From NCBI GenBank assembly GCA_038254115.1, contig JBBSGK010000004.1, positions 4,227 to 68,226 on the forward strand: a stretch of DNA of 64,000 nucleotides. Reading direction: 5' to 3'. A program made the position numbers and the translations under genes. Below the pieces are notes generated by a model, which saw nothing but the letters and a program-made list of their open reading frames with translations, was not told the DNA's origin and ran no database searches. Below, piece by piece: positions 2,427 through 59,914 of the stretch. The stretch's first letter is position 1. The number at the start of each line of letters is the position of its first letter. Source of the stretch: Candidatus Levyibacteriota bacterium. Its GTDB lineage: Bacteria; Patescibacteriota; Microgenomatia; Levybacterales; UBA12049.

Positions 2427-5318
2427 TTATGGTGCAACTTCTCTTGAGATTGTTTCATCCCGCATCAGAAAAGTTGGGGCATTAAGTATAAAATCAAGTC
2501 TCGGACTGATTGTGAGAGATGGGGTATTTGAGTTAGCGCCGCAAAGACTGCGGTTATTTATTAGCTTTCCATTCCCACCATTACCGGCAGCATTCATGAT
2601 AATTGATCCTTCTACATTTAACATTTTATCAGGAGCCGGGCAATTGTTTTTTCCCTCAAGAACAAAATTCTTATCAGTACTGTAAAATCCTTGTAATTGG
2701 CCTGCGGGTTTGGGCAAAGAGTTGCTTGCGGCGCCTACCGATTTATCGATAACGATGTTCCCGCTTGATGAAAATAGAGCAGTCGAGCCGTTTGGAATTG
2801 TAATGTCGCCTTTAACCGTTAACTTTCCATTGATTAGGAATATATAATTTTGGGATACGGTTGTAGGATTAAAGCTTGTAATAGTTACATCGCTATTGGG
2901 CGGGGCAACATAAATTCCATGGGATAAGTTGCTTGGAAGAGCGCAGTTGGAAATGCCACCGCTGCAAACTGATGCAAGATCAATTGTGGTTAATTGTGCC
3001 CCGGATATCTTGTCGGTCAAACTCCCATAACTTGTATGCAAGCGGCCGGTAGATGAGAAGAATTCAGGATACGATGATCCTCCTACGACCCAATTTTTAC
3101 CGGATGACTGACCCGGGGAAAAATCCGGATTTCCATCTCCTGAAAAAATGACTCCAGGGGTTGATCCGATAGCGCTGTCACTCTCTGAGGCAGATGCGCC
3201 TGAGGGAACATTGTCCACAAATCCGCTATCAATCCGAAGGTCAAGATTATAGCCCTGTATCCAAGCAGTGGAGTTATTGAGGGCAAAATTGAGATTTATT
3301 ATATTTCCTGATGCATCACAACTGCCTCCGGTTGTTGGATTGGGAATAGGATTAACGCATCCCGAGCCGGCAGTTACAGAGAATGCTGCTGGTCCGTAAG
3401 GATATACATGGTAATTAGGCGGAACAGTATTGTACGTTATTGTGTAGGTCCCGGAAGGAACATTTGTAAAGGAATAACTGCCATCCGCGTTATTGGCTAC
3501 TGTTATTCCAGCGCTTGGAGAGATACTTATATTTGGTGGTGTTGCAGTATAGTTTAATTCGCCACGGTTACTCTGATTGTCTCCATTTGTATCAATAAAA
3601 ACCTTTCCGGAGATGCTGAAGAAAGCCGTATTTACAGTAGCTGTATTTACAGTAAATGACAGATTGTCGGTACTAGCATTGCAATTTGCGTCACCCGAAT
3701 AGTCTGCTGTAATTGTATGGGTTCCGGTAGTTAAGGATGAGGTAGAGATGTTTGCTGTTTGCGCGGCAAGAGCTACGGGATTACCCATTGATATGCCCCC
3801 GTCATTGAATTGAATTGTGCCTGTCGGAACACAGGCACCGCTTCCTGCAACTGAAGCTGAAAAAGTAACTGATGTTCCTGAATTAGATGGGCTTACCGGG
3901 GAAGAGGTAAGAGTGGTAGTGGTTGCTGCTAATGAACCTGTTGTAGGTGTTGCGGTTGGAGGAGTAGTTGGAACCGTGGTTGGGGTAGGTGTTGCGGTTG
4001 GAGGAGTAGTTGGAACCGTGGTTGGGGTAGGTGTTGGTGGTTGTATTTGTGGAACTGAGCAGCCTGCTCCTCCGCGTCCTCCGGCACCGCCTGTGTTACC
4101 TGAGGGCGGTTGGCCGGCTTGTCCTGCATGTAATCCGTTACAGCCAGAACCTCCAGCTCCTCCGACACGGCCAGGTCCAACTTTATCATTGTAAATATCG
4201 CCATAACCCCCGGCTCCATAACCGGCAATTGGTCCGGCGGGCGAGGCAGTCCCAGTGGCACCGGTGCCTCCTTGACCTCCATCTCCTCCCTTGCCTCCGT
4301 CGCCACCGGCTGTAGTTCCAAGTCCATTTCCGCCATTGCCACCTAACCCTCCTATACCTCCCTTACCATTGAAGCTCTCAGCAATACTAAACGCTCCGTA
4401 TCCTGCAATTGGACCTGTAAATTTTGCGTCTCCATGGGCATTGTTTCCTCCTCTTCCTCCGTTGCCTCCATTTCCACCATTTCCTCCAGATTGGATCCCG
4501 TTTGAGTCACCTCCATTGCCTCCATCGCCTCCAAAGCCCCCCTCTCCATTATATAAAATTCCAAAACTACCTGCCCCATATCCGACTCCTCCAGGGGATG
4601 AGGCAGTTCCGTGGGCTCCCGTGCCTCCTTGACCTCCATCTCCTCCCTTGCCGCCATTCCGTCCTAATTTTCCATTATTTCCATTCCCTCCCCATCCTCC
4701 GGCACCGTTATATACTTGAGCAAAACTTGAAGCACCATAACCGACAGGTGTTACGGATTTAGCATCGCCCGAAGCATTATCCCCACCACGTCCACCAACT
4801 CCTCCATCTCCACCTGCGCTAATTGCGGTTGCATTTCCTCCCTTGCCTCCATTTCCACCCTTACCGTTGTATACCTGAGTCGAGAAAGCTGAACTGCTAC
4901 TTTTGGCATTACCGGAAGCATAATTACCTCCAGTTCCTCCGCTTCCTCCTGGCCCGGCAACACCATTGCTTGTTATATTATCGCCTCCATTTCCGCCTTT
5001 TCCTCCGAGGCCGTTATATACAGTTGTGAGGGTTGTGGCATCACTTTTAGCATTGGCGACTCCGCCTCCTCCTCCGCCCCCACCGGCGCCGAGTGCTTGG
5101 TTGAGAGTTAATAATCCACTTCCACCATTTCCTCCATTTGCTGCCCCTCCTGCTCCCCCTCCTAAGCCTTGAGAATTATTGCAACCTTTTTGTCCTGGTG
5201 CGCCGGAAGCGCCACCTGTACCACAGCCAACTTGGGCAGATAAGGTGGGTACGAGTATAAGAAAAGTGAAGATAAACAGCGTGAGAATAGAGTTATTGAG
5301 GAATGGTTTTCTTGCCAT
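2427..5318 (-). CDS. glycine-rich repeat cell-surface protein (signal peptide, Gly-rich repeats, Pro/Thr linker, Ig-like/Cna-B-like domains, C-terminal domain)
   Basis: 963 aa. The signal peptide is MARKPFLNNSILTLFIFTFLILVPTLSAQ. It is followed by about 390 aa of roughly 40-aa repeats of the form YNGxGGxGGxGG...DAKS. Then comes a PTPTTVPTTPPTAT x2 linker, then beta-sandwich-like segments such as GKVFIDTNGDNQ...SGTYTITY. The gene lies between rplA and rplJ. Confidence 0.85.
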   Translation of the reverse strand: MARKPFLNNSILTLFIFTFLILVPTLSAQVGCGTGGASGAPGQKGCNNSQGLGGGAGGAANGGNGGSGLLTLNQALGAGGGGGGGGVANAKSDATTLTTVYNGLGGKGGNGGDNITSNGVAGPGGSGGTGGNYASGNAKSSSSAFSTQVYNGKGGNGGKGGNATAISAGGDGGVGGRGGDNASGDAKSVTPVGYGASSFAQVYNGAGGWGGNGNNGKLGRNGGKGGDGGQGGTGAHGTASSPGGVGYGAGSFGILYNGEGGFGGDGGNGGDSNGIQSGGNGGNGGNGGRGGNNAHGDAKFTGPIAGYGAFSIAESFNGKGGIGGLGGNGGNGLGTTAGGDGGKGGDGGQGGTGATGTASPAGPIAGYGAGGYGDIYNDKVGPGRVGGAGGSGCNGLHAGQAGQPPSGNTGGAGGRGGAGCSVPQIQPPTPTPTTVPTTPPTATPTPTTVPTTPPTATPTTGSLAATTTTLTSSPVSPSNSGTSVTFSASVAGSGACVPTGTIQFNDGGISMGNPVALAAQTANISTSSLTTGTHTITADYSGDANCNASTDNLSFTVNTATVNTAFFSISGKVFIDTNGDNQSNRGELNYTATPPNISISPSAGITVANNADGSYSFTNVPSGTYTITYNTVPPNYHVYPYGPAAFSVTAGSGCVNPIPNPTTGGSCDASGNIINLNFALNNSTAWIQGYNLDLRIDSGFVDNVPSGASASESDSAIGSTPGVIFSGDGNPDFSPGQSSGKNWVVGGSSYPEFFSSTGRLHTSYGSLTDKISGAQLTTIDLASVCSGGISNCALPSNLSHGIYVAPPNSDVTITSFNPTTVSQNYIFLINGKLTVKGDITIPNGSTALFSSSGNIVIDKSVGAASNSLPKPAGQLQGFYSTDKNFVLEGKNNCPAPDKMLNVEGSIIMNAAGNGGNGKLINNRSLCGANSNTPSLTISPRLDFILNAPTFLMRDETISREVAP
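3947..4040. repeat. 42-bp tandem repeat (2.3 copies) inside the Gly-rich protein gene, encoding the PT-rich linker
   Basis: GTGTTGCGGTTGGAGGAGTAGTTGGAACCGTGGTTGGGGTAG occurs at 3947-3988 and again at 3989-4030, followed by a partial third copy. Confidence 0.8.
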
Positions 5319-10530: not shown

Positions 10531-10927
10531 TTTTATTTGCACTTTTTGCAGAAAAAGTGCCCAAAACTGCCGCCGGGTCTAGCTCCAGCTTTTTGAAATC
10601 TCACTCGTTCCCTAAAAGAGCCAGTCTTCGCTGCGCTTGCTTTTCCTCTTTTCCTGCCTGCCGGCAGACGTTCACTCATTCATTTCTCATGCAGTCGCTC
10701 GAATCGGCGGATACTATTTAGGCCTACCGTAATTCGGCAATTCGAGCATGCGTTAAAGAAATATGACTAATGAGCGTTAAGAAAACTGAAAAGTGAAGTG
10801 AAACTGAACGTAGTTTTTAGCGAAGAGGAAATATTTCTAGCACGCGCAGACCTGCCGACGCTTTTCGTTCTTTGTGCGCACAAAGAATAATAGAAAAGAA
10901 ATATTGCTGCAAAAAGTGCAATAAAAA
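10531..10927. mobile_element. MITE-like non-coding element of about 397 bp with 21-bp terminal inverted repeats
   Basis: The left end TTTTATTTGCACTTTTTGCAG (10531-10551) and the reverse complement of the right end CTGCAAAAAGTGCAATAAAAA (10907-10927) match at 19 of 21 positions. The interior carries no consistent ORF. A roughly 150-bp internal segment (10566-10716) recurs at 30866-31010. Confidence 0.5.
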
Positions 10928-12689: not shown

Positions 12690-13256
12690 TTGACCAAGCT
12701 ATTTATTCCAATTCTTCTCGGAACTGTACGCCCCAAGCGTGAATCCATAAAAGCCGCAAATTTGATTGAGAAAGTAGGAAAGACGATTAAGGAGATAGAA
12801 GTTTCATTAGTCGATCCGAAGGATTACAATTTTCCCTACGATGGCAATGATCCTGAGAACAAAGACCCGCGCTATTCAAAGCTGACAAAAAAAGCTGATG
12901 GATTTTTTATAGTGACACCGGAATATAATCACAGCTTTCCCGGAACTTTGAAAAGAATGCTCGACTCAGAGCTCAAAAATTACATCCATAAGCCTGTTGC
13001 ATTTGCCGGTGTTTCCAATGGAATTTTTGGGGGAGCCCGGGCTATTGAATCGCTCACCCATACAGTACGTGAGATGGGGCTTGTTCCTACTTTTTCAGAT
13101 GTCTATTTTCCGCAAATTCAGAATCTATTTGATGAAAAAGGAGAGATAATTGATAAGGGATATGTGAAAAGAATTGAGAGGGGATTTGCCGAGCTGATCT
13201 GGATGAGCAAAGCGTTGAAGTGGGGACGGGAGAATCTGGAAAGTATTTATCACTAA
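12690..13256 (+). CDS. NADPH-dependent FMN reductase (flavodoxin-like fold)
   Basis: ...FFIVTPEYNHSFPGTLKRMLD... is the NADPH-dependent FMN reductase signature. The 3' end (ELIWMSKALKWGRENLESIYH*) is repeated twice downstream. Confidence 0.8.
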   Translation: MTKLFIPILLGTVRPKRESIKAANLIEKVGKTIKEIEVSLVDPKDYNFPYDGNDPENKDPRYSKLTKKADGFFIVTPEYNHSFPGTLKRMLDSELKNYIHKPVAFAGVSNGIFGGARAIESLTHTVREMGLVPTFSDVYFPQIQNLFDEKGEIIDKGYVKRIERGFAELIWMSKALKWGRENLESIYH

Positions 13257-13921
13257 GAAGTTGCAAATTCAGGCATTGGTATATCCGCAAAGCGTGGTAC
13301 AAGTTCAGGATTAAGTTCCGGATCCCGGACAGCTCTATTTATAAGTATCAAAGATTCTGCAACATTTCTTTGCAACTCTTCAATTTGATACCATGGGCTT
13401 TCTTCATCCCCAAGTGTGAATCCAGCACCATTTAGCCCTAGGTCTTGCAGCGATTCACGATCCAAGACTTTACCGTACTGGTGGTCAGAATGGTAATTTA
13501 TTTCATGTAGTGGTGTCTCATCAGGTTTAAAGCTGTAATTAATTGTTATAGTACGCATGTCATCCCACTTCGCATCGTCATAACTAACATTCCTGCTTGG
13601 CCTCCCATAAATTTCGGCAACTATCCTGCCGCTTCCATATAATGGTAAAGTAGCTGCTCCAAGATTAACTGGTGTTGAGAAAGCTCTTTTGTTATCTTCA
13701 TTGCCAATGACTTTTAAAAGATCGATTCCTCCTTCGACTAATGATTGTTGTCTTTCAAGAGCAGCAATTTGAAACCGTCTATCAGCAGGATCAATCTCGC
13801 CGTTTTTGACTTTATGATGAGTTTCTGCTCGTTTGAGATGCACTCTCTTTTCTATCATTTGAGCCCTGAGTCTTTCGGGATTCATAAGTATATAGTATAT
13901 CACATAAATGCAATATAGCAA
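13253..13921 (-). CDS. hypothetical protein (cassette gene 1; Arg-rich)
   Basis: 222-aa ORF, convergent with the FMN reductase, stop overlapping its stop. No family recognised. Confidence 0.55.
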   Translation of the reverse strand: MLYCIYVIYYILMNPERLRAQMIEKRVHLKRAETHHKVKNGEIDPADRRFQIAALERQQSLVEGGIDLLKVIGNEDNKRAFSTPVNLGAATLPLYGSGRIVAEIYGRPSRNVSYDDAKWDDMRTITINYSFKPDETPLHEINYHSDHQYGKVLDRESLQDLGLNGAGFTLGDEESPWYQIEELQRNVAESLILINRAVRDPELNPELVPRFADIPMPEFATS

Positions 13922-13976
13922 TAGACAAATTGCGTTAAGCCAAATATTATTTAGTCTTATAGATTTTTTTAATTAT

Positions 13977-14072
13977 TTTGCCAGGCGAATCGAAAAAGTT
14001 TACACCGAGCTGATCTCGTTGGCAAAGAGTCTGAAATGGGGACGGGAGAATTTGAAAAGTATTTATCACTGA
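13977..14072 (+). pseudogene. degenerate duplicate of the FMN-reductase 3' terminus (fragment B)
   Basis: In-frame fragment RIEKVYTELISLAKSLKWGRENLKSIYH* versus genuine RIERGFAELIWMSKALKWGRENLESIYH*. Roughly 80% nt identity with 13165-13256. No upstream remainder of the gene. Confidence 0.7.
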
Positions 14073-14872
14073 GCATCGGGATCTTGCGGATTCTCTTCAT
14101 CAGAAATTGGATTAAGCATCTCCCGGAGCTTGCGTCTTGCTCTCATCAGTTTTAATCTGACTCCGTCTTCGCTAGTACCGAGAACATCTGCGATCTCTTG
14201 TATTGAAAAAAGTCCACTTTCAACAAGATTGACTACAATACGAGGGTCAAATATGACATGTTCAGTATGGTTTGGTGAATCCGAATCCGCATTATTTTTT
14301 TGTTTTTTATTATAATATTGTTTGGCTACTTCTTCTCCTAAAGCATTTACTCTGGTTTTTAATGTATCTAATTCCGGAATCTCCTCTAAGCTACTGCATA
14401 CCACGTTTAAAGCTTCAATGATATCACTTTTTAGATTACCCCTCCTGGGCAAATGGGGCAAAAGGGTATATCCAGCACTCACTAATAAATCAACGCGGTC
14501 ATGAGGACTTATGGAATCATCTTCAGTTTTAAGTGCTTTCAAATACATCTTTGCTAAAATACTGGGCGCTACTTTTTTTTGATTCAATGGTATCATTTCA
14601 AGTAATTTTAAAGCTCCTCTTCTTTGGCGGATAATCCACGGATTTTCAGTTTGCCCACTTATACCAGAAAGCAACTCTCTAGTTAGATTCGCAGTTTGCC
14701 CGTTTGACCTCTCAGAATAATGATCCAATTCTGTCCTGATACCGCTCATTAGGAGCTTGCGTTTCGGATCGCGTTCATTCAATAAAAGTGATAATAGGCT
14801 ATCTTTTTCTAGGATTCCTGCGACTAAAATACGATGGGGCTGCATTCTTAATTCTTTTCTCTCGTATTGCAT
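14066..14872 (-). CDS. hypothetical protein with a C-terminal sigma-70 region-4-like HTH (cassette gene 2)
   Basis: 268 aa. The C-terminus LFSIQEIADVLGTSEDGVRLKLMRARRKLREML resembles sigma-factor region 4.2. Its stop overlaps the fragment B stop. Confidence 0.55.
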   Translation of the reverse strand: MQYERKELRMQPHRILVAGILEKDSLLSLLLNERDPKRKLLMSGIRTELDHYSERSNGQTANLTRELLSGISGQTENPWIIRQRRGALKLLEMIPLNQKKVAPSILAKMYLKALKTEDDSISPHDRVDLLVSAGYTLLPHLPRRGNLKSDIIEALNVVCSSLEEIPELDTLKTRVNALGEEVAKQYYNKKQKNNADSDSPNHTEHVIFDPRIVVNLVESGLFSIQEIADVLGTSEDGVRLKLMRARRKLREMLNPISDEENPQDPDAQ

Positions 14873-14903
14873 AGGTAGTGCATTGTAAGAAATAAGAACT
14901 ATA

Positions 14904-14954
14904 ATGTCAAACGGATCGGAGGGAAGGGAGAATTTGAAAAGTATTTATCATTGA
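14904..14954 (+). pseudogene. second, shorter degenerate duplicate of the FMN-reductase 3' terminus (fragment C)
   Basis: MSNGSEGRENLKSIYH*. It matches fragment B at 27 of 28 nt over GGGAGAATTTGAAAAGTATTTATCA. Confidence 0.6.
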
Positions 14955-14958
14955 CTCA

Positions 14959-15621
14959 TCAATTATCATAAACCCTTACTGCAATATCCGGATTTCCGTA
15001 GACTAACGCAGCATCACAAGATCGGAACCAAATATCCAATTGTGTACCGTAACCGTATGTATCATCAATTATAAATCTGTGACCTGCCATCGGACCGGAT
15101 AGGACATCTACATGTGCCCTTTGTGGTTCATCGTTCATGGCAATATCTCCTTCTTTTGCCAATCCCACACCTGAGTTTGTGTCACAATATGCAGTTGATT
15201 TTACAGTACGATCGTGAAAGGTAGAGGATGGATTAGGACTAGAGGCCAACGGATAGGAATCTGTTGTGCTAGCTGAGGTAGGTTCAGTGAAGGTCGGCTC
15301 GGTTTTAGTCGCCGTTTCTTTTGGGGGTGGTGCGGTTATTTCGGGTGAAGCTGTTGGGGGAGGAGCTACAAAAATGGTACTTGTAGATGTATCAGGATTT
15401 ACAAAAATTGTTGTTGAAGTTGGAATTGTACGGGAGGTTGGTTCTACCGCACGCAGGCCTGATGTCACAATAGTTGCACGGTTGTCTACGTGTCTTGCAG
15501 CTGCAACACCTGCGGCTGATTCGGTTAGTGAAACAAATAACATGGCTGAGCGGAATGTTTTTGATCTAAAAAGCCTATTTATCCTATCGGAACGAGCTCC
15601 TTGTTCATGACTTATTCTCAT
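14959..15621 (-). CDS. hypothetical secreted/anchored protein with a Pro/Thr/Ala-rich linker (cassette gene 3)
   Basis: 220 aa. N-terminal hydrophobic segment AMLFVSLTESAAGVAAA, PT-rich stalk, and an approximately 90-aa C-terminal domain. Confidence 0.5.
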   Translation of the reverse strand: MRISHEQGARSDRINRLFRSKTFRSAMLFVSLTESAAGVAAARHVDNRATIVTSGLRAVEPTSRTIPTSTTIFVNPDTSTSTIFVAPPPTASPEITAPPPKETATKTEPTFTEPTSASTTDSYPLASSPNPSSTFHDRTVKSTAYCDTNSGVGLAKEGDIAMNDEPQRAHVDVLSGPMAGHRFIIDDTYGYGTQLDIWFRSCDAALVYGNPDIAVRVYDN

Positions 15622-15675
15622 TTTATTAAGCTCAAAATAACATCTGGGAGCTTATATGTCAAATTATTAAGGCTA

Positions 15676-16380
15676 TTAGCGGATGTCGCTTAGATCCTGG
15701 GGTTTTTTGAATGCGAATTGGTTTATGTAGCCCGGAAGGTATGAAAGCATGCCTTTTAAAAAGCCATTTTTTACGCGTCTGCCATCAACTATAACGGGGA
15801 AACGGATAAATTTTATTTTCCCAAGCTTGTTAACACGGTTGGCAAGGTCAATGTCCTCATTGCTCAATAGGGCGGGATTGAACTCTCCTGCTTTTTTGTA
15901 ATCATCTGATCGTATGGCGAAGTTGAATCCTGTCAGCCAAAAGTGCCCGGCAAAAAGACGGTAGGCTACCATCGCGGTTGGTTGAATAATGTCGAAACAT
16001 ATATTGGTCCACCTAGAACAATCCTCAATTCTTCCAGTACCTGTAACTGCTACTATATTTTTGTCGGATAGAGGAGCTGTCAATTTCTCAATCCAATCTC
16101 GTGGCGCAATACTGTCTCCATCAAGAGATAGAATTATCTCGCCCTTTGCTTTCCGGAATCCTGCAAATCGTGCTGAACCGCGTCCTTTCACAGGCTCTTT
16201 AATTACTTTTAGATCGAGTTTATCTTTATACTTATTTGCAGTTTCAAAAGTTCTATCAGCCGAGCCATTGTCCACGACAATTACCTCATAAGGTTTATCA
16301 GTAGTTTGGTCGATGAGGGATTCAATACATCTGCCTATTGTTTTCTCTTCATTGTAGGCGGGGATAACTATAGATATCAT
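15676..16380 (-). CDS. family 2 glycosyltransferase
   Basis: MISIVIPAYNEEKTIGRCIESL...VIVVDNGSADRT is the GT2 N-terminal signature, with a DGD motif. Confidence 0.85.
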   Translation of the reverse strand: MISIVIPAYNEEKTIGRCIESLIDQTTDKPYEVIVVDNGSADRTFETANKYKDKLDLKVIKEPVKGRGSARFAGFRKAKGEIILSLDGDSIAPRDWIEKLTAPLSDKNIVAVTGTGRIEDCSRWTNICFDIIQPTAMVAYRLFAGHFWLTGFNFAIRSDDYKKAGEFNPALLSNEDIDLANRVNKLGKIKFIRFPVIVDGRRVKNGFLKGMLSYLPGYINQFAFKKPQDLSDIR

Positions 16381-16444: not shown

Positions 16445-17680
16445 TTAAACCATGCTATCTACTTTAGCCAGAGTACGTGTATGTCCATTTTGGTCCCTCC
16501 TTCTTGCAGATTCAGAGGCTGTATGGGGTTTTATCCCTTCTATTTTCATTTTTTGGGCTACAACCCGACGAGAAATACTATATTTAAGTGCGATATCAGA
16601 TGGGGAAAGTCCATCTTCCCGGAGAAGAACAATTAGTTCCTCTCCAGATAATGCCGCAAAAGTCTCAAACTTTTTTTCTTCTCGGGCCGTAGACTTAGGT
16701 TGGCCATCTTGTGTTTGGGAGTCTGGATTAAAATAGCTATTTAATCTATTTATTGCGTTTTCTACAGTTTGCCGCGCTAATTCTCTAGAAATTTCAAGCA
16801 CAGCTCCAACTTCCACATTCGACCTAGGATAACCCCGGTCAAATCCATAAGATAGCACGACGGCTCGGCGTTCTCTTTCCGGAAGAAGATCTAATATTTC
16901 ACCTATCTCTTTAATTTCAGTACTGCTTAATCCCGCAACATCAGGACGTGGAGCTGTTGTCTCTGCGACCCGATCACCAATCGTCGGTGAATCAGAGTCG
17001 CTACTGACATGATCCTCAAGAGCCCGTTCTTGTTGAAAAATTTTGGCTATGTTTGTTACTTCATCTGGTGTTCTTTTCAATTTTGCTGCGAGCTCATCTG
17101 TAGTTGGTTCGCGCCCATTATCAATTAAAAATGCTGTGCTTACATTTTTGATTGCTCTATGTTCCTCGTGTCTATGGGTGGGAATCCGAATGTTCCTACC
17201 CGTGTCCCGTATACCTTTTATAACTGCTTGTCTGATCCACGAAGTTGCATAAGTTGAAAATTTAAAACCTTTTCTGGCATCAAATTTGTCAACTGCATGC
17301 ATAAGACCAAAAGTCCCTTCTTGTATAAGATCCATAATCGGCAATCCATTACCTGTATATCTTTTTGCTATATTTACAACCAATTTTAAGTTGGACCCGA
17401 CAAACATTTCTTTTGCTTTTCTTCCTGCTTCAACTTGAACCTCTGCTTTTCGTTTTTCATCGTCTGATAATCCACCCCTCCGTTTTAATGCAACTTCTGC
17501 TTTTCTACCCCTTGCAATATCACCAGCCAGTTGGACTTCATCAGCCCTGGTAAGTAAAGGATACTTGCGAATATCGTTTAGATATATTGTAAATGAATCA
17601 GCGTTTTCTCTCCCACGACTTGTAGCTCTCCCTCTGCCGGGCATTACATCTCTTTCTGTATGTTGCTCATTTCTTGGCAT
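16445..17680 (-). CDS. rpoD: RNA polymerase sigma-70 factor (RpoD-like) with an approximately 95-aa C-terminal extension carrying an extra HTH
   Basis: Regions 1.2, 2, 3 and 4 are recognisable: YLNDIRKYPLLTRADEV, MFVGSNLKLVVNIAKRY, LIQEGTFGLMHAVDKFD, IRQAVIKGIRDTGRNIRIP, LPERERRAVVLSYGF. A tail follows region 4, containing LSGEELIVLLREDGLSPSDIALKYSISRRVVAQKM. Confidence 0.88.
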   Translation of the reverse strand: MPRNEQHTERDVMPGRGRATSRGRENADSFTIYLNDIRKYPLLTRADEVQLAGDIARGRKAEVALKRRGGLSDDEKRKAEVQVEAGRKAKEMFVGSNLKLVVNIAKRYTGNGLPIMDLIQEGTFGLMHAVDKFDARKGFKFSTYATSWIRQAVIKGIRDTGRNIRIPTHRHEEHRAIKNVSTAFLIDNGREPTTDELAAKLKRTPDEVTNIAKIFQQERALEDHVSSDSDSPTIGDRVAETTAPRPDVAGLSSTEIKEIGEILDLLPERERRAVVLSYGFDRGYPRSNVEVGAVLEISRELARQTVENAINRLNSYFNPDSQTQDGQPKSTAREEKKFETFAALSGEELIVLLREDGLSPSDIALKYSISRRVVAQKMKIEGIKPHTASESARRRDQNGHTRTLAKVDSMV

Positions 17681-17788: not shown

Positions 17789-19387
17789 TTATTCCCATCT
17801 CATCGTTGCGGGGGGTTTGGAAGTGATGTCATAAACAACTCTTGAAACATCAGGGACCTCATTTACAATTCTTGATGATATTTGCGCGAGCACATCATAG
17901 GGGATACGGCTCCAATCAGCCGTCATAACATCCTCAGAATCATACGAGCGCACAGCTAGGACTTCTGCATAAACACGGGCGTCTCCTTTGACCGCGGTTG
18001 AAAAGCTTCCTGTCATTACTGCAAAGCATTCAAATACTTTGCTGTATTGGTCTGCTTTTTTCATCTCTTCAACCACTATTTGATCTGCTTTCATGACTTG
18101 TGCAAGCCTTTTTTCTGTGACCTCACCCATTATATTTACCGCATGTCCGGGACCGGGCCAAGGCTGCTGCATTACTATTTCCTCAGGAAGTCCTGAGAGG
18201 CGCCCGATTTCGCGTACTTCATCTTTATAATAAGTCCGGTTGGGTTCGATAAGTTTTAATTTCAAACTCTGAGGAAGTCCTCCGACATTGTGATGGGATT
18301 TGATGTGGGATGCATGCTTAGACCCTTTGGATTCTATAACATCTGAGTAAATTGTTCCCTGCCCGAGGAACTCTGCATCCTTATGCTTTTCTGCAATTTC
18401 CTGGAAGATATCTATATAAAGACTTCCGATTATTTTTCTCTTTTGTTCCGGATCTGTTATTCCTTTTAGCTTGTTTAGGAAACGTGTACGTGCATCAACG
18501 ATCACCAAATTTGCATGTATCAAATCTTTAAAAATGTAACTGACAAGCTGATCTGTGCCGACTCTCATAAGACCTGATTCGACATAGACCGGGATAAGAT
18601 TTGGGCCGATTGCTTTTCCTATCAGAAAAGCTGCAACAGTTGAGTCGACACCTCCTGAAACAGCAGCGATGACTTTACTTGTCCCAACTGTCTTTTTAAT
18701 GTCCGCTATTATTTTTTGCGGATCAAGAGAGAGGGGAACAAGATCCTCTTTACAGATCTTTGCAAAGTTTCTCAAAATTTCCAAACCATAATCTGTGTGC
18801 TGCGCTTCAGGATGAAACTGCACGCCATATAGATTTTTATCTGTGTTTTGGACAGCTGAAAATTCAACTGTTTTGGTGACAGCGAGATTTTCAAAACCCG
18901 GGGGAAGTTTTGTTACAGTGTCGCCATGTGAAACAATAACACTTGAAGTTTGGGGAAATCCATTAAGGATGCTTAATTCTTGATTATTAAGTCTTAATTC
19001 TAACTTTTCAGGTCCGTATTCTTTGGTCGTCTCCTCCACCTTTGCGCCCAATACCTGAGCCATTAATTGCCAGCCGTAACAAATGCCAAGAATTGGTGTT
19101 CCTTGCTCAAAAATCTCTTTTGAAATTGTTGGCGCGCCTTTTTCATAAACAGATGAAGGTCCGCCGGAAAGGATAATTCCCTTGATAGTATCACGGGTAC
19201 CACGTGTAGCACGAGTACCACGAGCTTTTTTCGTTTCTTTCCCGTGATACCCGTGGTACTTTTGATACTCGTGATACTTTTGGAGTGTTTCCTCGGGGTT
19301 TACGTATTCTATTTGGACTCCTATTTGCCGGAGGCGTCTCCCTATGAGGTGAGCAGTTTGTGAGCCAAAGTCAACGATGAGGATCAT
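17789..19387 (-). CDS. guaA: GMP synthase (glutamine-hydrolysing) with an approximately 35-aa low-complexity insert in the amidotransferase domain
   Basis: N-terminal GATase (IVDFGSQ...ILSGGPSS...GICYGWQ), ATP-pyrophosphatase SGGVDS motif, and a C-terminal dimerisation domain. The extra segment YHEYQKYHGYHGKETKKARGTRATRGTRDTIKG is not in canonical GuaA. Confidence 0.93.
   Translation of the reverse strand: MILIVDFGSQTAHLIGRRLRQIGVQIEYVNPEETLQKYHEYQKYHGYHGKETKKARGTRATRGTRDTIKGIILSGGPSSVYEKGAPTISKEIFEQGTPILGICYGWQLMAQVLGAKVEETTKEYGPEKLELRLNNQELSILNGFPQTSSVIVSHGDTVTKLPPGFENLAVTKTVEFSAVQNTDKNLYGVQFHPEAQHTDYGLEILRNFAKICKEDLVPLSLDPQKIIADIKKTVGTSKVIAAVSGGVDSTVAAFLIGKAIGPNLIPVYVESGLMRVGTDQLVSYIFKDLIHANLVIVDARTRFLNKLKGITDPEQKRKIIGSLYIDIFQEIAEKHKDAEFLGQGTIYSDVIESKGSKHASHIKSHHNVGGLPQSLKLKLIEPNRTYYKDEVREIGRLSGLPEEIVMQQPWPGPGHAVNIMGEVTEKRLAQVMKADQIVVEEMKKADQYSKVFECFAVMTGSFSTAVKGDARVYAEVLAVRSYDSEDVMTADWSRIPYDVLAQISSRIVNEVPDVSRVVYDITSKPPATMRWE
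19186..19292. repeat. array of 7 octamer repeats GTAYCACG in both orientations (palindromic), in frame inside guaA
   Basis: Forward copies gtatcacg, ggtaccacg, tgtagcacg, agtaccacg, then inverted copies cgtgatac, ccgtggtac, tcgtgatac. It corresponds exactly to the extra 35 aa in GuaA. Confidence 0.6.
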
Positions 19388-30760: not shown

Positions 30761-30865
30761 GGATAAGATGGATTATAGCAGATTTATTGTGTACTTTTGG
30801 CAGCAAATGTATGCAAAACTGTTTTTTTATATGTTCTTTGTGTGGACAAAGAACCAAAGCCACCG

Positions 30866-31010
30866 CCAAGTCTAGCTCCAGCTTTCGGAATAGCACTCGC
30901 TCATTAAAAGAGTCAGTCTTCGCTACGCTTGCTTTTCCTCTTTTTCTGCCTGGCGGCAGACATTTTTTCGCTTATTTCTCATGCAGTCGCTCGAATCGGC
31001 GGATAATGGT
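30866..31010. repeat. second, partial copy (about 85% identity over about 150 bp) of the MITE-like element interior
   Basis: GTCTAGCTCCAGCTTT...CAGTCTTCGCT(A/G)CGCTTGCTTTTCCTCTTTT...CTGCCTG(G/C)CGGCAGAC...TTTCTCATGCAGTCGCTCGAATCGGCGGATA is shared with 10566-10716. Both copies are in the same orientation. Overlapping ORFs differ in frame and content, so the segment is non-coding. Confidence 0.6.
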
Positions 31011-31155
31011 TTAATTCTTTGGAAATGTGAGCGTTCAAATAAAAAAATTATTTGTATTTTGCGATTGAAACAAATATATTTAGTGAACATTCAAGCAAAG
31101 CACGTTTTGTAAATTGTGAATGAGTGGCATGTGTAACCAGCTTTATAGCATTTGC

Positions 31156-37929: not shown

Positions 37930-38060
37930 ATGAGCGATATCCCAAATATATCTTTTCAGAAGCTGCAAGTGGCGGATATTCCCCAAATTCATAAGTGGCT
38001 TAAAGAGCCGCATGTACACGCATGGTAAGATAGGTACAAGAAAAATTCTACTGGCGGCAT
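37930..38060 (+). pseudogene. truncated duplicate of the 5' end of the downstream GNAT acetyltransferase gene
   Basis: MSDIPNISFQKLQVADIPQIHKWLKEPHVHAW* versus intact MLNSHKISFRKLEVGDIPQIHKWLKEPHVHEWYDRDKKNS. The 28-nt block ATAAGTGGCTTAAAGAGCCGCATGTACA is identical. A C-to-A nonsense change turns TGGTAC into TGGTAA. Confidence 0.7.
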
Positions 38061-38075
38061 TTATTTTGCGCTCTC

Positions 38076-38915
38076 TTACATTAAACGTGTTTGGGTTTCC
38101 TCTTGGACACGTTTTGAATCAGTTATAAGAACACCCATTAACAGGTCAACCTGATCAGGAGTTAGTTTATTATCTTGTCCCCATTCGTAACGGTCATCTC
38201 TCATTGCCAATTCACGACCCTGGTCTAATATGCCGATTCCAAGAGCATGCTTTACTTTGGCAATTTCCGATGCCAACCTTCTTCTTTCTACTACAGCATC
38301 TATTATCGTAGAGTCTATTTGGGTATTATCCTCGGGTTTTATTTTTACAGCAGAGGTGACATCTGCAAATACAGCATCGAAATTTCTTAATCCTGCTTGA
38401 GTCAGGATAACTTGATCAACCCTATCTAATCCATTTCTATAATCGCTCAAGCGTTGCAGGGAAGAATCGTTACCCCCCTCAATTGGTATTTTGGTGATTG
38501 CTGGATGATGGCGGACAAATACTGCCCAGTTTTCAAACATGTCCCGTGCTGTGTTTAAGCTTTCACTATCAACTTGTCGATTATTCAAAACATGATTTAC
38601 TGTAGTTTGTACTTTTTTGGAGACTTGTGTTATATAATCATTTGGTGGCATTTCTGTAGGTTTGGCGTCCCAATCGACGATGTTACCCAGGGTAACTTCA
38701 TGATGAAACCTCTCCATTGGATTCGTAGGTATTTCCAGCAACATAATGCCTTGTTCCAATGCGCCTCTGTCGCGTCTATCATCGTAGCCATTACTTGCGC
38801 GCAAGCGTCTTCTACTGCTAAAGACGGTAATTGCATCGCTTACTCTATATAAGTCAAGGAAGGATGCTGCGCGGGGCGCATCAGGTTTTGTCGGTTTTTC
38901 AAGTGTTCCCCACAT
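38076..38915 (-). CDS. hypothetical protein (Arg-rich; inserted between the GNAT fragment and the intact GNAT gene)
   Basis: 279-aa ORF with no family recognised. Confidence 0.55.
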   Translation of the reverse strand: MWGTLEKPTKPDAPRAASFLDLYRVSDAITVFSSRRRLRASNGYDDRRDRGALEQGIMLLEIPTNPMERFHHEVTLGNIVDWDAKPTEMPPNDYITQVSKKVQTTVNHVLNNRQVDSESLNTARDMFENWAVFVRHHPAITKIPIEGGNDSSLQRLSDYRNGLDRVDQVILTQAGLRNFDAVFADVTSAVKIKPEDNTQIDSTIIDAVVERRRLASEIAKVKHALGIGILDQGRELAMRDDRYEWGQDNKLTPDQVDLLMGVLITDSKRVQEETQTRLM

Positions 38916-38963: not shown

Positions 38964-39524
38964 ATGGAGTGCTACAATATGCATATGCTTAATTCTCACA
39001 AGATATCATTCCGGAAGCTGGAAGTTGGGGATATTCCACAAATCCATAAGTGGCTTAAAGAGCCGCATGTACATGAATGGTACGATAGGGACAAAAAAAA
39101 TTCGCTTGAAGAAGTTACCGCGGAGTATACCAAATACATAACAGGGGAAGACAAAATGGATGGATACTTGGTGTGTATTGAAAATAAAGCAATAGGGTAT
39201 ATCCAGAAATACAGGATCTGGGACTGGCCTGAGTTTGCAAAAGCTTTAGGCTATGATAAGTCCACAGTAGCGATTGATATATTTATAGGAGATAAGAAGT
39301 TTATAGGAAAGGGTTTGGGATGTTGTTTTATTAAAAAGTTTCTAAAGGAAATAGTTTTCAAGGAAGAGGGGATAAGGACATGTCTTATTGATCCCGAGCC
39401 GGAAAATAAGCGTGCAATAAAGTCTTACGAAAAAGCAGGATTCCGATATGTCAAAACCCTAGATATCCCACCAGACCCGGGGCTTACTTATTTGATGGAG
39501 ATAAGGAAAGAAGACGCCAAATAG
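38964..39524 (+). CDS. GNAT-family N-acetyltransferase (aminoglycoside-acetyltransferase-like)
   Basis: GNAT core ...IGDKKFIGKGLGCCFIKKFLKEIVF...NKRAIKSYEKAGFRYV. The likely true start is the ATG at 38985 (MLNSHK...), just after a TACAAT box at 38971-38976, which implies a leaderless mRNA. Confidence 0.85.
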   Translation: MECYNMHMLNSHKISFRKLEVGDIPQIHKWLKEPHVHEWYDRDKKNSLEEVTAEYTKYITGEDKMDGYLVCIENKAIGYIQKYRIWDWPEFAKALGYDKSTVAIDIFIGDKKFIGKGLGCCFIKKFLKEIVFKEEGIRTCLIDPEPENKRAIKSYEKAGFRYVKTLDIPPDPGLTYLMEIRKEDAK

Positions 39525-51746: not shown

Positions 51747-52901
51747 TTGGAAAAACGTGGGCAAGCTGATAGAATAGGTTTAATTATGAATCTCTTGAAT
51801 AGTTTCTACGGTCTTTTTTCTCACGATATCGGTATAGATCTCGGCACTGCAAATACTCTTGTTTTTGTCCGGGATAAAGGGATTGTGATCCGTGAACCGT
51901 CAGTTGTCGCGAGGCAAAAAAAGAGCAAACAAATCATCGCGATTGGAAGTGAGGCCAAGAAAATGCTTGGCAAGACACCTGCTTCTATAGTTACGGTACG
52001 TCCGCTTCATGGGGGAACGATTGCGGATTTTGACGCGACTGTTTCGATGATCGCTTACTACATCAAGCAAGTCCATGAGATGGGGGGAAAATTGACCGGG
52101 ATTTTTGCCCGTCCCAAAGTGGTGATTGGGATTCCATCTGCAGTAACCGAGGTTCAAAGACGTGCTGTCTGGGAAGCAGCTCTCTCAGCAGGAGCCCGGG
52201 AAGCGTATCTTATTGAAGAGCCGATGGCCGCGGCAATTGGTGAGAATATATCAATTTTTCAGTCAAAGGGCATAATGGTAGTCGATATAGGCGGCGGGAC
52301 TACAGAAATCGCGGTTATCTCGCTTGGTGGAATAGTAGTCGGCCGGTCAATGAAACTCGCCGGAGACGAGATGGATCAGGCGATCCTGCATTATGTGCGG
52401 CTTCGCCATGGAATGCTTCTTGGGGAGAGTACAGCTGAGGATATAAAAATAAAAATAGGAAGCGCTGCCCAGAAAAGCGCAAAAGCGCAAAAGCGAAGAA
52501 GCGAAGAAGGGGAAGAAGAGAAGGAAGAGATTAGCCGTACGGCGAAGGTTATGATTGTGAGGGGACGGGATATTGAGACTGGTCTTCCAAAAAGCCAGAA
52601 GATAACTGAGCCTGAAATACGTGAGGCATTATCTCCGATAATCAATCAAATAATTCAAGCCGTTGCCGATGTTTTGGAGGAAACGCCGCCTGAGCTATTG
52701 CCTGATATTCTCGAGCAGGGAATTCTTCTCACAGGTGGGGGCGCCAATTTGGAAGGCTTTGATCAGTTGATGGTTGAACGGGTGCATCTGCCTGTTTTTG
52801 TTTCATCTGATCCGATGACCTCTGTTGTCCGCGGAACGGGAAAAGTTGTGCAGGATGAAAAACTCCTCGAGCGGGTGAAGGTAATTGGGGGATTGAGGTA
52901 G
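51747..52901 (+). CDS. mreB: rod-shape-determining protein MreB (with an approximately 35-aa charged insert)
   Basis: Actin-fold motifs DLGTANT, VIGIPSAVTEVQRRA and DIGGGTTE. The insert QKSAKAQKRRSEEGEEEKEE is encoded by the heptamer repeat (AAAGCGC)n(GAAGCGA)n at 52474-52512. Confidence 0.93.
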   Translation: MEKRGQADRIGLIMNLLNSFYGLFSHDIGIDLGTANTLVFVRDKGIVIREPSVVARQKKSKQIIAIGSEAKKMLGKTPASIVTVRPLHGGTIADFDATVSMIAYYIKQVHEMGGKLTGIFARPKVVIGIPSAVTEVQRRAVWEAALSAGAREAYLIEEPMAAAIGENISIFQSKGIMVVDIGGGTTEIAVISLGGIVVGRSMKLAGDEMDQAILHYVRLRHGMLLGESTAEDIKIKIGSAAQKSAKAQKRRSEEGEEEKEEISRTAKVMIVRGRDIETGLPKSQKITEPEIREALSPIINQIIQAVADVLEETPPELLPDILEQGILLTGGGANLEGFDQLMVERVHLPVFVSSDPMTSVVRGTGKVVQDEKLLERVKVIGGLR

Positions 52902-52921
52902 GAATAAAATTGTTATCCTGC

Positions 52922-53476
52922 TCATGCAGCCGGATTGAGCGCTATCCTACCGGTACGCAGTCCAAAGAAAAAATCTTCCGCTTTTGCCCGTTCATTTTCT
53001 GTGAGTCTGGCCAGGCTTTCGGCAGTTGAAGCATCAATTCTCGCACCGGTCATCATGATAGGAAGAGCTTCCATTTCGTCTACACTCAATTCACGTGAGC
53101 CTAGAGGAATATGGAATGTTGTTCCGTCTTCTTCTGCAACAACATAAGACTTTCTTTCCATGGATGAAGGTCCAATCCCATCTTTACCAGGAATAGGAGT
53201 AAAGGTTGACTTGACAGTTTGAGGACCATCCTCAAACATTACACCGGAACGTGTTAAACCAACTCCTGCTGTATTTGATTTGGCGTTGGGATCCACATAA
53301 TTGAGGCGATATCCACCATCTGATCCTCTGACTTTTATTCCTTCTTTCGCAGACTTTAAATCTCCTAACCCACCATAAAATAAGCTGATGGCCATTCTTC
53401 TTGCATCATCCTTTCTGCTTTGGTCTGGACTTAGTGGTCTTTCTGGTGAGCTTGCCATAATAAGTGGATGATACAT
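52922..53476 (-). CDS. hypothetical protein inserted between mreB and mreC
   Basis: Start trimmed to the ATG at 53474-53476 (MYHPLIMASSPER...). The longer ORF to 53782 overlaps a plus-strand promoter and ORF. Confidence 0.5.
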   Translation of the reverse strand: MYHPLIMASSPERPLSPDQSRKDDARRMAISLFYGGLGDLKSAKEGIKVRGSDGGYRLNYVDPNAKSNTAGVGLTRSGVMFEDGPQTVKSTFTPIPGKDGIGPSSMERKSYVVAEEDGTTFHIPLGSRELSVDEMEALPIMMTGARIDASTAESLARLTENERAKAEDFFFGLRTGRIALNPAA

Positions 53477-53500
53477 TTTTAATAACAGATTGTCAAGACT

Positions 53501-53531
53501 AGCGGTGAAGGTAATTGGGGGATTGAGGTAG
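53501..53531 (+). repeat. duplicate of the last 31 nt of mreB (29 of 31 identical), distal to the inserted gene
   Basis: AGCGGTGAAGGTAATTGGGGGATTGAGGTAG versus the mreB 3' end GCGGGTGAAGGTAATTGGGGGATTGAGGTAG at 52871-52901. Confidence 0.7.
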
Positions 53532-58789: not shown

Positions 58790-59914
58790 ATGCAAGAAAG
58801 ATCATATTGGCTTGGGTTTTCTTCTTTTTCGGGGATTGGGCCCAAGAAGTGTGAAGCTTTATTAAATGAATTCGGCACTGCTGAGGATGCATGGAAAGCG
58901 GATTTTAAAAATCTGGAGAAAGTATTGGGGAAAGCGCTTACCCCAAAGTTTGCAGATTTCCGTGACAGTTTCTCGATAGCAGACTATGAAAAACAACTCC
59001 TAAGGAAAAAGGTGGGATATTTGATTCTTACGGATAAAGATTACCCGTTCTTGTTAAAACAAATCAAGAAACCTCCATTTGTACTTTATTATAAGGGTAA
59101 TATTGAGATCTTGAAACAAGACGTGCCTACCGGTAGGCAGGTTCAGGATGACTATAAATCTATTGCGATTGTCGGGACGCGGCGGATTACTGAGTATGGA
59201 AAACAAGTGACTACCAGTCTTACAATGGACTTGGTAAACAATGGTTTTGTAGTTGTTTCAGGGCTTGCTCTGGGAGTTGACGCTGCAGCCCACAAGGCAA
59301 CTATCTTGAATAAAGGCAAGACAATAGCGGTACTTGGGTGCGGAGTTGATTGCTGTTATCCCAGGGAGAACCAGCAGATTTATGATAACATTCTTGAGAG
59401 TGGGGGAGCGATTGTGTCTGAATATTCTCTTGGTGAGCCCCCCTCAAAAGGATCTTTTCCATCAAGAAATCGAATTATCTCAGGTTTGTCATGCGGCGTA
59501 ATTGTAACAGAAGGATCTGCAGATAGCGGGGCGTTGTATACGGCAGATGATGCATTTGCCAATGGACGGCCCGTATTCGCAGTTCCAGGGCCCATCACAT
59601 CGAGCCTCTCAAAAGGCCCTCATGGATTGATAGGAAAAGGGGCAAAGCTTATAAGCGGGGCTGGGGAAATCATAGAGGAATTAGGTTTCAGAGGAGACAG
59701 AAGAGACAAAGGGGAGAGAGGGGCGAAGAGTTTTAAGGGAGATACAAAAGATGAACAGAGAATTATCGATCTCCTGCAGAATGAAAGCCTGCATTTTGAT
59801 GAGATTGTAAAACGAAGCAAGATCAGGTCTTCAAAACTGGGCGGAATTCTTTCAATGATGGAGATGAAAGGAATTGTAAAAAGTCAGGAAGCTGGCTTTT
59901 TCTGTTTGATTTAG
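58790..59914 (+). CDS. dprA: DNA-processing protein A (Smf/DprA)
   Basis: Rossmann-like DprA core IAIVGTRRITEYGKQ...VVSGLALGVDAAAHKA...IAVLGCGVD..YP, plus a C-terminal winged-helix-like domain. Confidence 0.85.
   Translation: MQERSYWLGFSSFSGIGPKKCEALLNEFGTAEDAWKADFKNLEKVLGKALTPKFADFRDSFSIADYEKQLLRKKVGYLILTDKDYPFLLKQIKKPPFVLYYKGNIEILKQDVPTGRQVQDDYKSIAIVGTRRITEYGKQVTTSLTMDLVNNGFVVVSGLALGVDAAAHKATILNKGKTIAVLGCGVDCCYPRENQQIYDNILESGGAIVSEYSLGEPPSKGSFPSRNRIISGLSCGVIVTEGSADSGALYTADDAFANGRPVFAVPGPITSSLSKGPHGLIGKGAKLISGAGEIIEELGFRGDRRDKGERGAKSFKGDTKDEQRIIDLLQNESLHFDEIVKRSKIRSSKLGGILSMMEMKGIVKSQEAGFFCLI

Follow-up and report, generated by a model that had tools for sequence, protein, structure and literature searches.

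The stretch of DNA described here (the window) comprises 64,000 nucleotides (nt) of a Candidatus Levyibacteriota bacterium, in which the gene of an FMN reductase (FMN_red) is followed by two further copies of its own 3' end. The live gene end is denoted copy A; its last 34-39 nt are found twice more downstream on the same strand, at 14039-14072 in fragment B and at 14921-14954 in fragment C. All three copies are in frame and terminated by a stop codon. Genes of the opposite strand lie beside them: copies A and B bracket the gene g1, copies B and C bracket the gene g2, and the gene g3 is located past C and has no distal copy. The preliminary description of this DNA, which was made from the letters only, spoke of three cassettes, each followed by a copy; this is true of g1 and g2, but g3 lies beyond the last copy. 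The convergent genes abut the copies as described there: the stop codon of g1 (13253-13255) overlaps that of FMN_red (13254-13256), the stop codon of g2 (14066-14068) falls inside fragment B, and that of g3 (14959-14961) begins 5 nt past the last base of the stop codon of C. Fragment C was drawn too long; its part GRENLKSIYH with the stop codon is homologous to the gene end, but the residues MSNGSE are not.

A search with a 25-nt word of the core, at most 3 mismatches being allowed, gave forward-strand matches at 13228, 14044 and 14926 and no others in the 64 kb, while 100 shuffles gave none (three matches observed against zero expected). The copies are thus where they had been placed. A repeat finder reports the 34-nt family 13223-13256, 14039-14072 and 14921-14954 at 91-94% identity and, for the pair A/B, also a repeat of 69 nt at 80%. 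The weaker homology of B runs upstream to about 13977; fragment C consists of the core only. In the terminal 34 nt the copies are 85-94% identical among themselves, and they are true derivatives of the gene end, not simple sequence; C and B are 94% identical in the core with an exact run of 25 nt, and A has 3 substitutions absent from both B and C. The ends of 35 orthologs are each at most 82% identical to A, B or C, though many of them encode the same peptide. Since the three copies are closer to one another than to any ortholog, A, B and C have a common origin in the FMN_red gene end of this lineage.

The global alignment of A with B (about 97 nt) contains 32/35 identical positions in the core, 29/36 in the middle part and 13/27 in the far part. 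The core differs in this respect from the rest of B, where 42/63 positions agree with A (Fisher p=0.007); among 175 ortholog pairs with similar upstream divergence, 1.1% reach the core identity of A and B. To the left of the core, the conserved codons of B differ from those of A at synonymous sites, and B retains family-consensus residues that have been lost from A. The sharp jump of identity, its rarity among ortholog pairs and the consensus residues in B together are read most simply as two different alleles that a crossover within the last ~35 nt has brought together. The comparison of synonymous and non-synonymous changes, which concerns the idea of two functional alleles, was not significant, the sites being very few.

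One could also consider B and C as decayed tandem paralogues of the FMN reductase, two extra copies having been deleted to their last codons; the fragments are indeed in frame and conserved at the protein level. We believe that this explanation is effectively refuted. The forward-strand frames between the copies score 29, 28 and 32 against FMN_red residues 1-157, with null means of 29-31, i.e., they stay at the shuffle mean. The full-length tandem paralogues that the preliminary description named as an argument against itself are found in none of 168 related loci. The segments between the copies hold long minus-strand open reading frames (ORFs) with promoters, and the cases of mreB and GNAT considered below are not explicable by such decay.

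Scarcely more credible is the presumption that the repeat is a functional intergenic element (a terminator, an attC-like site or a regulatory RNA) or an assembly artefact. Conservation in B is highest in the core, as in a functional element; however, on either strand most shuffles of the core regions fold better than the regions themselves (z from +0.3 to +1.8), no terminator-like sites are found at them, and they have no Rfam match. Concerning the assembly, Logan contigs built separately from the same run (SRR24807095) are 100% identical over both the FMN_red and mreB arrays. The longest exact repeat in the arrays is 28 nt, which is shorter than the k-mer of Logan (k=31).

The genes g1, g2 and g3 have no relationship to one another according to sequence comparison, as was proposed earlier. 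The protein of g1 matches only itself among 5.8 billion protein clusters and has no match in Pfam, PHROG, PADLOC or PDB; its single-sequence AlphaFold model has a predicted local distance difference test score (pLDDT) of 38. No homologs of g2 were found among the same clusters, and its sigma region-4 is the sole match of the inserts in the PDB, PHROG and PADLOC searches. The possibility that g2 is a duplicate of the neighbouring sigma factor was rejected, as it is not derived from that gene. The protein of g3 has an N-terminal hydrophobic segment and a Thr/Pro-rich linker (read from the sequence), and its C-terminal domain is common to about 120 small proteins, some with LysM; its homologs are distant only, and g3 is probably resident here or an older neighbour. 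The genes g1, g2 and g3 are each preceded by a separate promoter-like site, with consensus matches of 11/12, 10/12 and 9/12 across the three; the −35 box is the consensus TTGACA in the sites of g2 and g3. A retro-copy of mRNA was rejected, because the inserts contain their own −35 boxes. The ratio R/(R+K) in the inserted genes is 0.54-0.75 versus the window median of 0.34 (Mann-Whitney p=0.009), so the remark that they are Arg-rich holds in the form of a shifted Arg/Lys balance. The inserted genes thus share an Arg-over-Lys bias foreign to this genome; in the GC content and its value at third codon positions (GC3) they do not differ significantly from the window.

The interval that contains these genes lies between two conserved, convergent genes, FMN_red at its left border and guaA at its right. 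Relatives whose FMN_red is 82-87% identical keep the gene order of both flanks (to the left NTP-transferase, PAP2, DUF4389 and FMN_red, to the right guaA), while the content of the interval differs almost every time: a histidine kinase, a kinase with an Rce1-like gene, three other genes, etc. Such variation between syntenic flanks makes the interval from FMN_red to guaA a gene-flux hotspot. The earlier view that unrelated genes were inserted serially at one gene end is supported. Neither g1, g2 and g3 nor the GT2 gene and the sigma factor occur in this interval in any relative examined, and the 168 related loci contain no homologs of g1, g2 or g3. An orphan FMN_red terminus is absent from the 165 other loci with a complete gene end; the terminus scars at FMN_red are therefore peculiar to this genome. 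Thus, the proposed comparison with relatives confirmed the variable interval but provided neither an orphan copy nor an empty-site strain. Scars were also searched for on the guaA side and rejected, as there are no orphan copies of the guaA end.

FMN_red has 3240 homologs, the closest being 87% identical; its nearest relatives bear source names (Levybacteria, Saccharimonadales) of the Candidate Phyla Radiation (CPR). The search of genome contigs provided relatives of at most 64% FMN_red identity among the matches listed, and the metagenome search with exact-protein look-ups provided relatives with an identity of up to 88%. When FMN_red, g1 and MreB were looked up as exact proteins, only the same sample came back and no conspecific strain; gX and g279 (see below) and MreB with a TTG start had no match, probably since the gene calls differ. 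As a separate matter, the FMN reductase is unusually conserved, with 77-87% identity in thousands of proteins from metagenome-assembled genomes (MAGs) labelled Levybacteria, Saccharimonadales and even Chloroflexi; this suggests strong constraint, horizontal spread or mis-binning.

A systematic scan of the window for local direct repeats demonstrated that all of them share the architecture of the FMN_red scars, except those inside one Gly-rich protein. A second copy of the mreB end stands 630 nt downstream and is followed by a 115-aa ORF and mreC; the insert (52902-53503) carries the gene gX, for which no family or phage match was found. In the GNAT gene it is the 5' end that is duplicated, the gene g279 being inserted between the orphan and intact copies. 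The first 18 nt of this pair are identical at 8/18 positions and the next 101 nt at 88/101 (p=0.0002). The intact GNAT gene has a candidate new promoter inside the inserted DNA (TACAAT at 38973-38978, then 6 nt and ATG) and is predicted to be leaderless; together with the break of identity, this argues that the incoming DNA carried its own gene start. The features are collected in the table (aa, amino acids).

Table. Features of the FMN_red, GNAT and mreB regions (positions are those of the window)
Feature	Position	Strand	Remarks
FMN reductase gene (FMN_red), 188 aa, intact	12690-13256	+	Pfam FMN_red E=1e-21; same gene call on Logan contig
Copy A, terminal core of the live FMN_red (…KWGRENLESIYH, stop), own stop included	13216-13257	+	repeat finding, 25-mer search
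g1, inserted ORFan, 210 aa	13253-13885	-	promoter-like TTGCTA-N16-TATACT at 13921-13894
Fragment B, orphan FMN_red 3' end (RIEKVYTELISLAKSLKWGRENLKSIYH, stop)	13977-14072	+	core 14032-14072 near-identical to A
g2, inserted ORFan, 268 aa, C-terminal sigma-70 region-4 helix-turn-helix	14066-14872	-	promoter TTGACA-N17-TACAAT at 14910-14882
Fragment C, orphan 34-nt FMN_red terminus (GRENLKSIYH, stop)	14921-14954	+	repeat finding, alignment
g3, 220 aa, beyond the last scar	14959-15621	-	promoter TTGACA-N17-TATTTT at 15662-15634
GT2 glycosyltransferase	15676-16380	-	lineage-specific interval content
Sigma-70 factor	16445-17680	-	lineage-specific interval content
guaA (GMP synthase), conserved right border of the variable interval	17789-19387	-
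Orphan 5' fragment of the GNAT gene	37930-38048	+	ATG 1 nt past the stop of the upstream gene; premature TAA
g279, inserted, 279 aa, C-terminal chorismate mutase II domain	38076-38915	-	between the orphan and intact GNAT 5' ends
GNAT gene (acetyltransferase), intact	38985-39524	+	second copy of the repeat at 38985-39103 (its first 119 nt)
mreB, last 28 nt with stop, first copy	52874-52901	+	perfect repeat
gX, inserted, 178 aa	52922-53458	-	promoter TTGACA-N17-TATCAT-N9-ATG at 53496-53468
Orphan mreB terminus, 100% identical, 630 nt downstream	53504-53531	+	also on Logan contig
DprA	58790-59914	+	Pfam DNA_processg_A E=1e-71; 5 kb from the mreB insertion

The −10 box stands 6-9 nt before the ATG (15 nt for g3) in the sites 13894-13921, 14882-14910, 15634-15662, 38973-38987 and 53468-53496. 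Such short distances in the inserted genes and in the GNAT gene with its new promoter suggest leaderless mRNAs.

The same type of scar was found in one relative with 84% FMN_red identity (locus L099, contig WNGL01005160.1). Perfect 27-nt repeats at 2974-3000 and 3642-3668 bracket there a RelB/RelE-like toxin-antitoxin pair between glmS and a 330-aa gene; what seems to be the glmS promoter has its −35 box and spacer inside the repeat, and 1 nt past the repeat the insert begins with TTGACA-N17-TATACT-N6-ATG. About 2 Mb of related loci contain a handful of comparable, ambiguous cases versus 4 events in this 64 kb, i.e., the enrichment is ~30-fold. Two other repeats in these loci can be mentioned. 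A 209-aa gene in a Saccharibacteria MAG (L003 and L133, 15635-15663 and 16333-16361) lies between 29-nt direct repeats, 93% identical and similar to a small hairpin, which may be a single-gene insertion or a duplicated terminator. In a Verrucomicrobia MAG (L040), a perfect 37-nt repeat (2028-2064 and 5206-5242, 3.2 kb apart) resembles the 5' part of a tRNA gene and could belong to a classical tRNA-targeted integrative element.

The events have several features in common. In 4/4 events of the window one boundary of the repeat is 0-2 nt from a stop or start codon, while the other boundary varies; the repeats measure 28, 34, about 96 and about 119 nt. Each unit, 0.63-1.06 kb in size, contains one self-promoted gene, which runs opposite to the gene with the duplicated end (5/5 inserts). 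The copies are two-allele mosaics wherever the repeat is long enough to judge. The three targets have no 12-mer in common beyond chance, and one shared recombinase core was rejected for lack of a common motif. The inserts have no terminal inverted repeats, the best terminal inverted match being 7-9 of 16. No integrase, transposase or recombinase domain was found in any insert or in the 58 scanned ORFs of the window (at least 120 aa). The FMN_red terminus is not a unique site; the same scar at mreB and at the GNAT 5' end, with unrelated repeats, indicates a general homology-anchored process more than a dedicated site-specific system.

We presume, giving it about an even chance, that two genes were acquired one after the other at the FMN_red stop codon, the left edge of the hotspot, each by a homology-driven crossover, and that B and C are the scars of these events. 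The incoming DNA would have contained one compact foreign gene with its own promoter and, next to it, the final 35-100 nt of an FMN-reductase gene of its own. A crossover within the shared terminal ~35 nt would integrate this DNA and rebuild an intact gene end beside the newcomer, a second and useless copy of the end being left on the far side. The gene g2 would be gained in one event and g1 in the other, in either order. As to which kind of molecule entered, by which route, and which enzyme made the crossover, we infer that a circle was integrated through a Campbell-type single crossover, or that a homology-anchored event of equivalent outcome took place, by means of host recombination; later spread between strains would proceed through DNA uptake followed by ordinary recombination in the flanking homology.

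The crossover was most likely driven by homology and not by a dedicated integrase. Host homologous recombination is favoured by the absence of a shared motif, of inverted ends and of a recombinase domain, by the presence of DprA and by competence in Saccharibacteria. Moreover, a boundary at a codon combined with a variable second one is expected of recombination between homologous segments but not of a cut with a fixed stagger. The window, which agrees at 100% identity with Logan contigs of run SRR24807095, is an ordinary chromosomal region of a small bacterium with ~41% GC and includes ribosomal proteins L1, L10 and L11, NusG, guaA, mreB-mreC-PBP2, DprA and four tRNAs. DprA loads RecA on incoming transforming DNA, so its presence is circumstantial support for a host that takes up foreign DNA and recombines it; neither RecA nor other competence genes were seen in the 64 kb covered. 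Saccharibacteria are naturally competent (PMC10633639). In E. coli, a single crossover of circular DNA with a part of a gene produced flanking duplications of 109-950 bp as the dominant product (PMC3240628). Campbell-type insertion-duplication and homology-facilitated illegitimate recombination (the same source) resemble our case in that the insert lies between direct repeats of the shared segment, which differ in length according to how far the homology reaches, and in that no dedicated recombinase is needed; variable-length repeats, reciprocal two-allele mosaics and the absence of a common target sequence are all observed here. However, that process is mainly a laboratory outcome, and here we have a natural one, with repeats of 28-119 nt, four times in 64 kb and with very tidy ends.

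Several facts speak against homology-driven acquisition. The effective blocks of identity are short, with the longest exact runs of 15, 25, 28 and 29 nt; such lengths come close to the minimum for recombination of the RecA type. The inserts are also suspiciously unit-precise: the distance between the −35 box and the distal repeat is 7 nt for gX, 10 nt for g2 (where the repeat is fragment C) and 1 nt for L099, and that between the stop codon of the insert and the proximal repeat is 0-27 nt. This is not expected of random fragment ends, and either long trimming or a mechanism moving pre-formed units would be needed. No donor genome with g1 or g2 beside FMN_red was found, both genes being ORFans and the closest sampled relative being 87% identical in FMN_red; among the look-ups there was no empty-site or variable-number strain, and the exact matches were from the same sample only. 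Finally, cores 27-40 nt long would be typical of att sites, too (10.1101/2020.12.28.424599).

The last point concerns site-specific integration, in which the repeats would be attL/attR of small elements that target gene termini; these would have accumulated in tandem and been reduced to one cargo gene each, or would be non-autonomous and mobilised in trans by an integrase encoded elsewhere. This is the main rival, although we consider it unlikely. Stacking at the 3' end of a protein gene is already known: in streptococci, integrative and conjugative, integrative and mobilizable, and cis-mobilizable elements (ICEs, IMEs and CIMEs) accrete in tandem at the 3' ends of fda, rpsI, rpmG and rplL, and att-flanked CIMEs without recombination genes are on record (PMC7563491). 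The likeness is considerable, since in both cases 2-3 units are in series at one protein-gene terminus, the direct repeats are copies of the terminus, and CIMEs retain att repeats without recombination genes. In addition, the same 34-nt terminus core ending at the stop codon is present at every junction (A, B and C), and the core lengths, the crossover-type mosaic of the copies and the precise boundaries of the inserts suit such integration. However, the streptococcal units are of conjugative or mobilizable origin, 1.2-13 kb long (or gene-free, 130-220 bp), and have an integrase in a tandem partner; ours are 0.63-1.06 kb with one gene each, no integrase or relaxase was found, repeats at other loci are unrelated, and a 5' end is also used.

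Within the window, neither a cognate integrase nor its remains were found in g1, g2 or between the genes, and no pseudogene debris of larger elements is seen there. The three targets in 64 kb (two 3' ends and one 5' end) would need three specificities, and repeats ranging from 28 to about 119 nt are not in favour of att sites either. None of the 165 other FMN_red loci (0/165) has an element or orphan copy at the terminus. Viral contigs contain neither the repeat cores nor gX or g279, and phage genomes gave no match to gX or g1. The partial-tRNA arrays of Prochlorococcus islands are explained by integration as well (tycheposons; 10.1101/2020.12.28.424599): there, too, orphan 3' fragments in a streamlined genome record serial integrations, and newer arrivals displace older ones outward. 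They differ in that the target is tRNA or tmRNA and the elements carry tyrosine recombinases.

Unit-precise inserts and two perfect repeats of near-equal length (28 nt at mreB and 27 nt in L099) could be attributed to target-site duplication, i.e., to insertion of a pre-formed unit into a long-stagger cut made by a transposase-like or end-joining process, with 27-35 nt duplicated. GGGGA is present in all four duplicated segments (13216-13257, 52874-52901, 38985-39103 and L099 2974-3000), with p about 0.01-0.05 assessed post hoc, which would also suit such a process. Nevertheless, we regard this as very unlikely. Neither a transposase nor terminal inverted repeats were found, the repeat lengths have a four-fold spread, and repeats ending 0-1 nt from the stop codon in 3/3 cases are not expected of a stagger; the GNAT and A/B pairs, being two-allele mosaics, contradict ordinary decay of a duplicated site. 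For comparison, the IS1202 family comprises elements of ~1.5 kb with inverted repeats of 24-26 bp, a transposase of 441-457 aa and duplications of 16-28 bp (PMC10132070); neither a DDE transposase of this type nor terminal inverted repeats of 24-26 bp were found here. With regard to the G-rich word as such, the G-run starts at position 14 in both perfect 27/28-nt repeats, and GGGGA in the window is strongly biased to one strand (101 on the forward strand and 31 on the reverse strand).

It is tempting to propose that CPR bacteria have integrase-less minimal mobile gene cassettes, each consisting of one leaderless gene with a consensus promoter and using ~30-100 nt of a host-gene terminus as a homing arm; we hold this to be distinctly doubtful. 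Such a cassette would enter exactly at the start or stop codon of the host gene by short-homology recombination, exit as a circle through recombination between the repeats and spread by natural transformation. The idea is kept open since unit-precise ends, the antiparallel orientation in 5/5 inserts, the ~30-fold enrichment and the L099 example are unexplained by random fragment capture; the shared GGGGA and the Arg-over-Lys bias of the inserted genes likewise leave room for it. Such cassettes would be an undescribed class. A parallel is known from T4-type phages, whose PeSL mini-circle cassettes are also single ORFans with strong sigma-70 promoters and short direct repeats and are shuffled by homologous recombination through small circles (PMC2839356). 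The PeSL repeat, however, is one shared promoter-plus-stem-loop motif in a phage genome; our repeats are locus-specific and originate from host genes of a chromosome, have no common motif between loci and contain no stem-loops.

The analogy with integrons drawn in the preliminary description is confined to single-gene units arranged in series beside a fixed site. In an integron, IntI is encoded beside attI, attC sites are imperfect palindromes at the 3' ends of cassettes, and the cassettes are mostly promoterless and depend on a common promoter. Here, no recombinase domain is found in FMN_red, its neighbours or the scanned ORFs of the window, the cores form no attC-like hairpin (see the folding above), g1, g2 and g3 each have a promoter-like site, and the repeat is the coding sequence of a neighbour gene. 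We conclude that the array is a tidy record of gene gain and not a new integron-like machine.

CPR bacteria (Patescibacteria) have very small genomes with few recognisable mobile elements and many ORFan genes, and to our knowledge the gain of genes in them is poorly understood. The window keeps four acquisition events with both junctions intact and thus documents gene gain in a CPR genome with unusual clarity. The joints would lie in ~30 nt shared with incoming DNA that had the neighbouring gene's end in a version of its own. If the acquisition was homology-driven, competence and host recombination would be enough to form cassette-like arrays without integrases, and orphan gene termini would provide a searchable marker of recent gene gain in MAGs. 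If an integrase was responsible, the accretion at protein-gene termini would extend from Firmicutes to CPR. If minimal cassettes exist, they would be a chromosomal counterpart, driven by host recombination, of integron cassettes and phage PeSL mini-circles, and a main route by which tiny CPR genomes sample ORFan genes.

Two other repeats of the window deserve mention. A non-coding intergenic element of ~170 nt is present in two ~85% identical copies 20 kb apart (10561-10730 and 30854-31020); neither Rfam nor the related loci contain a counterpart. It could form a long-range CCGCCG/CGGCGG stem, but two sequences give no covariation. The Gly-rich protein excepted above (2427-5318, reverse strand, 963 aa) has a bacterial Ig-like domain and long internal repeats of a nonapeptide type, and its gene includes a perfect 42-nt tandem duplication at 3943-4026.

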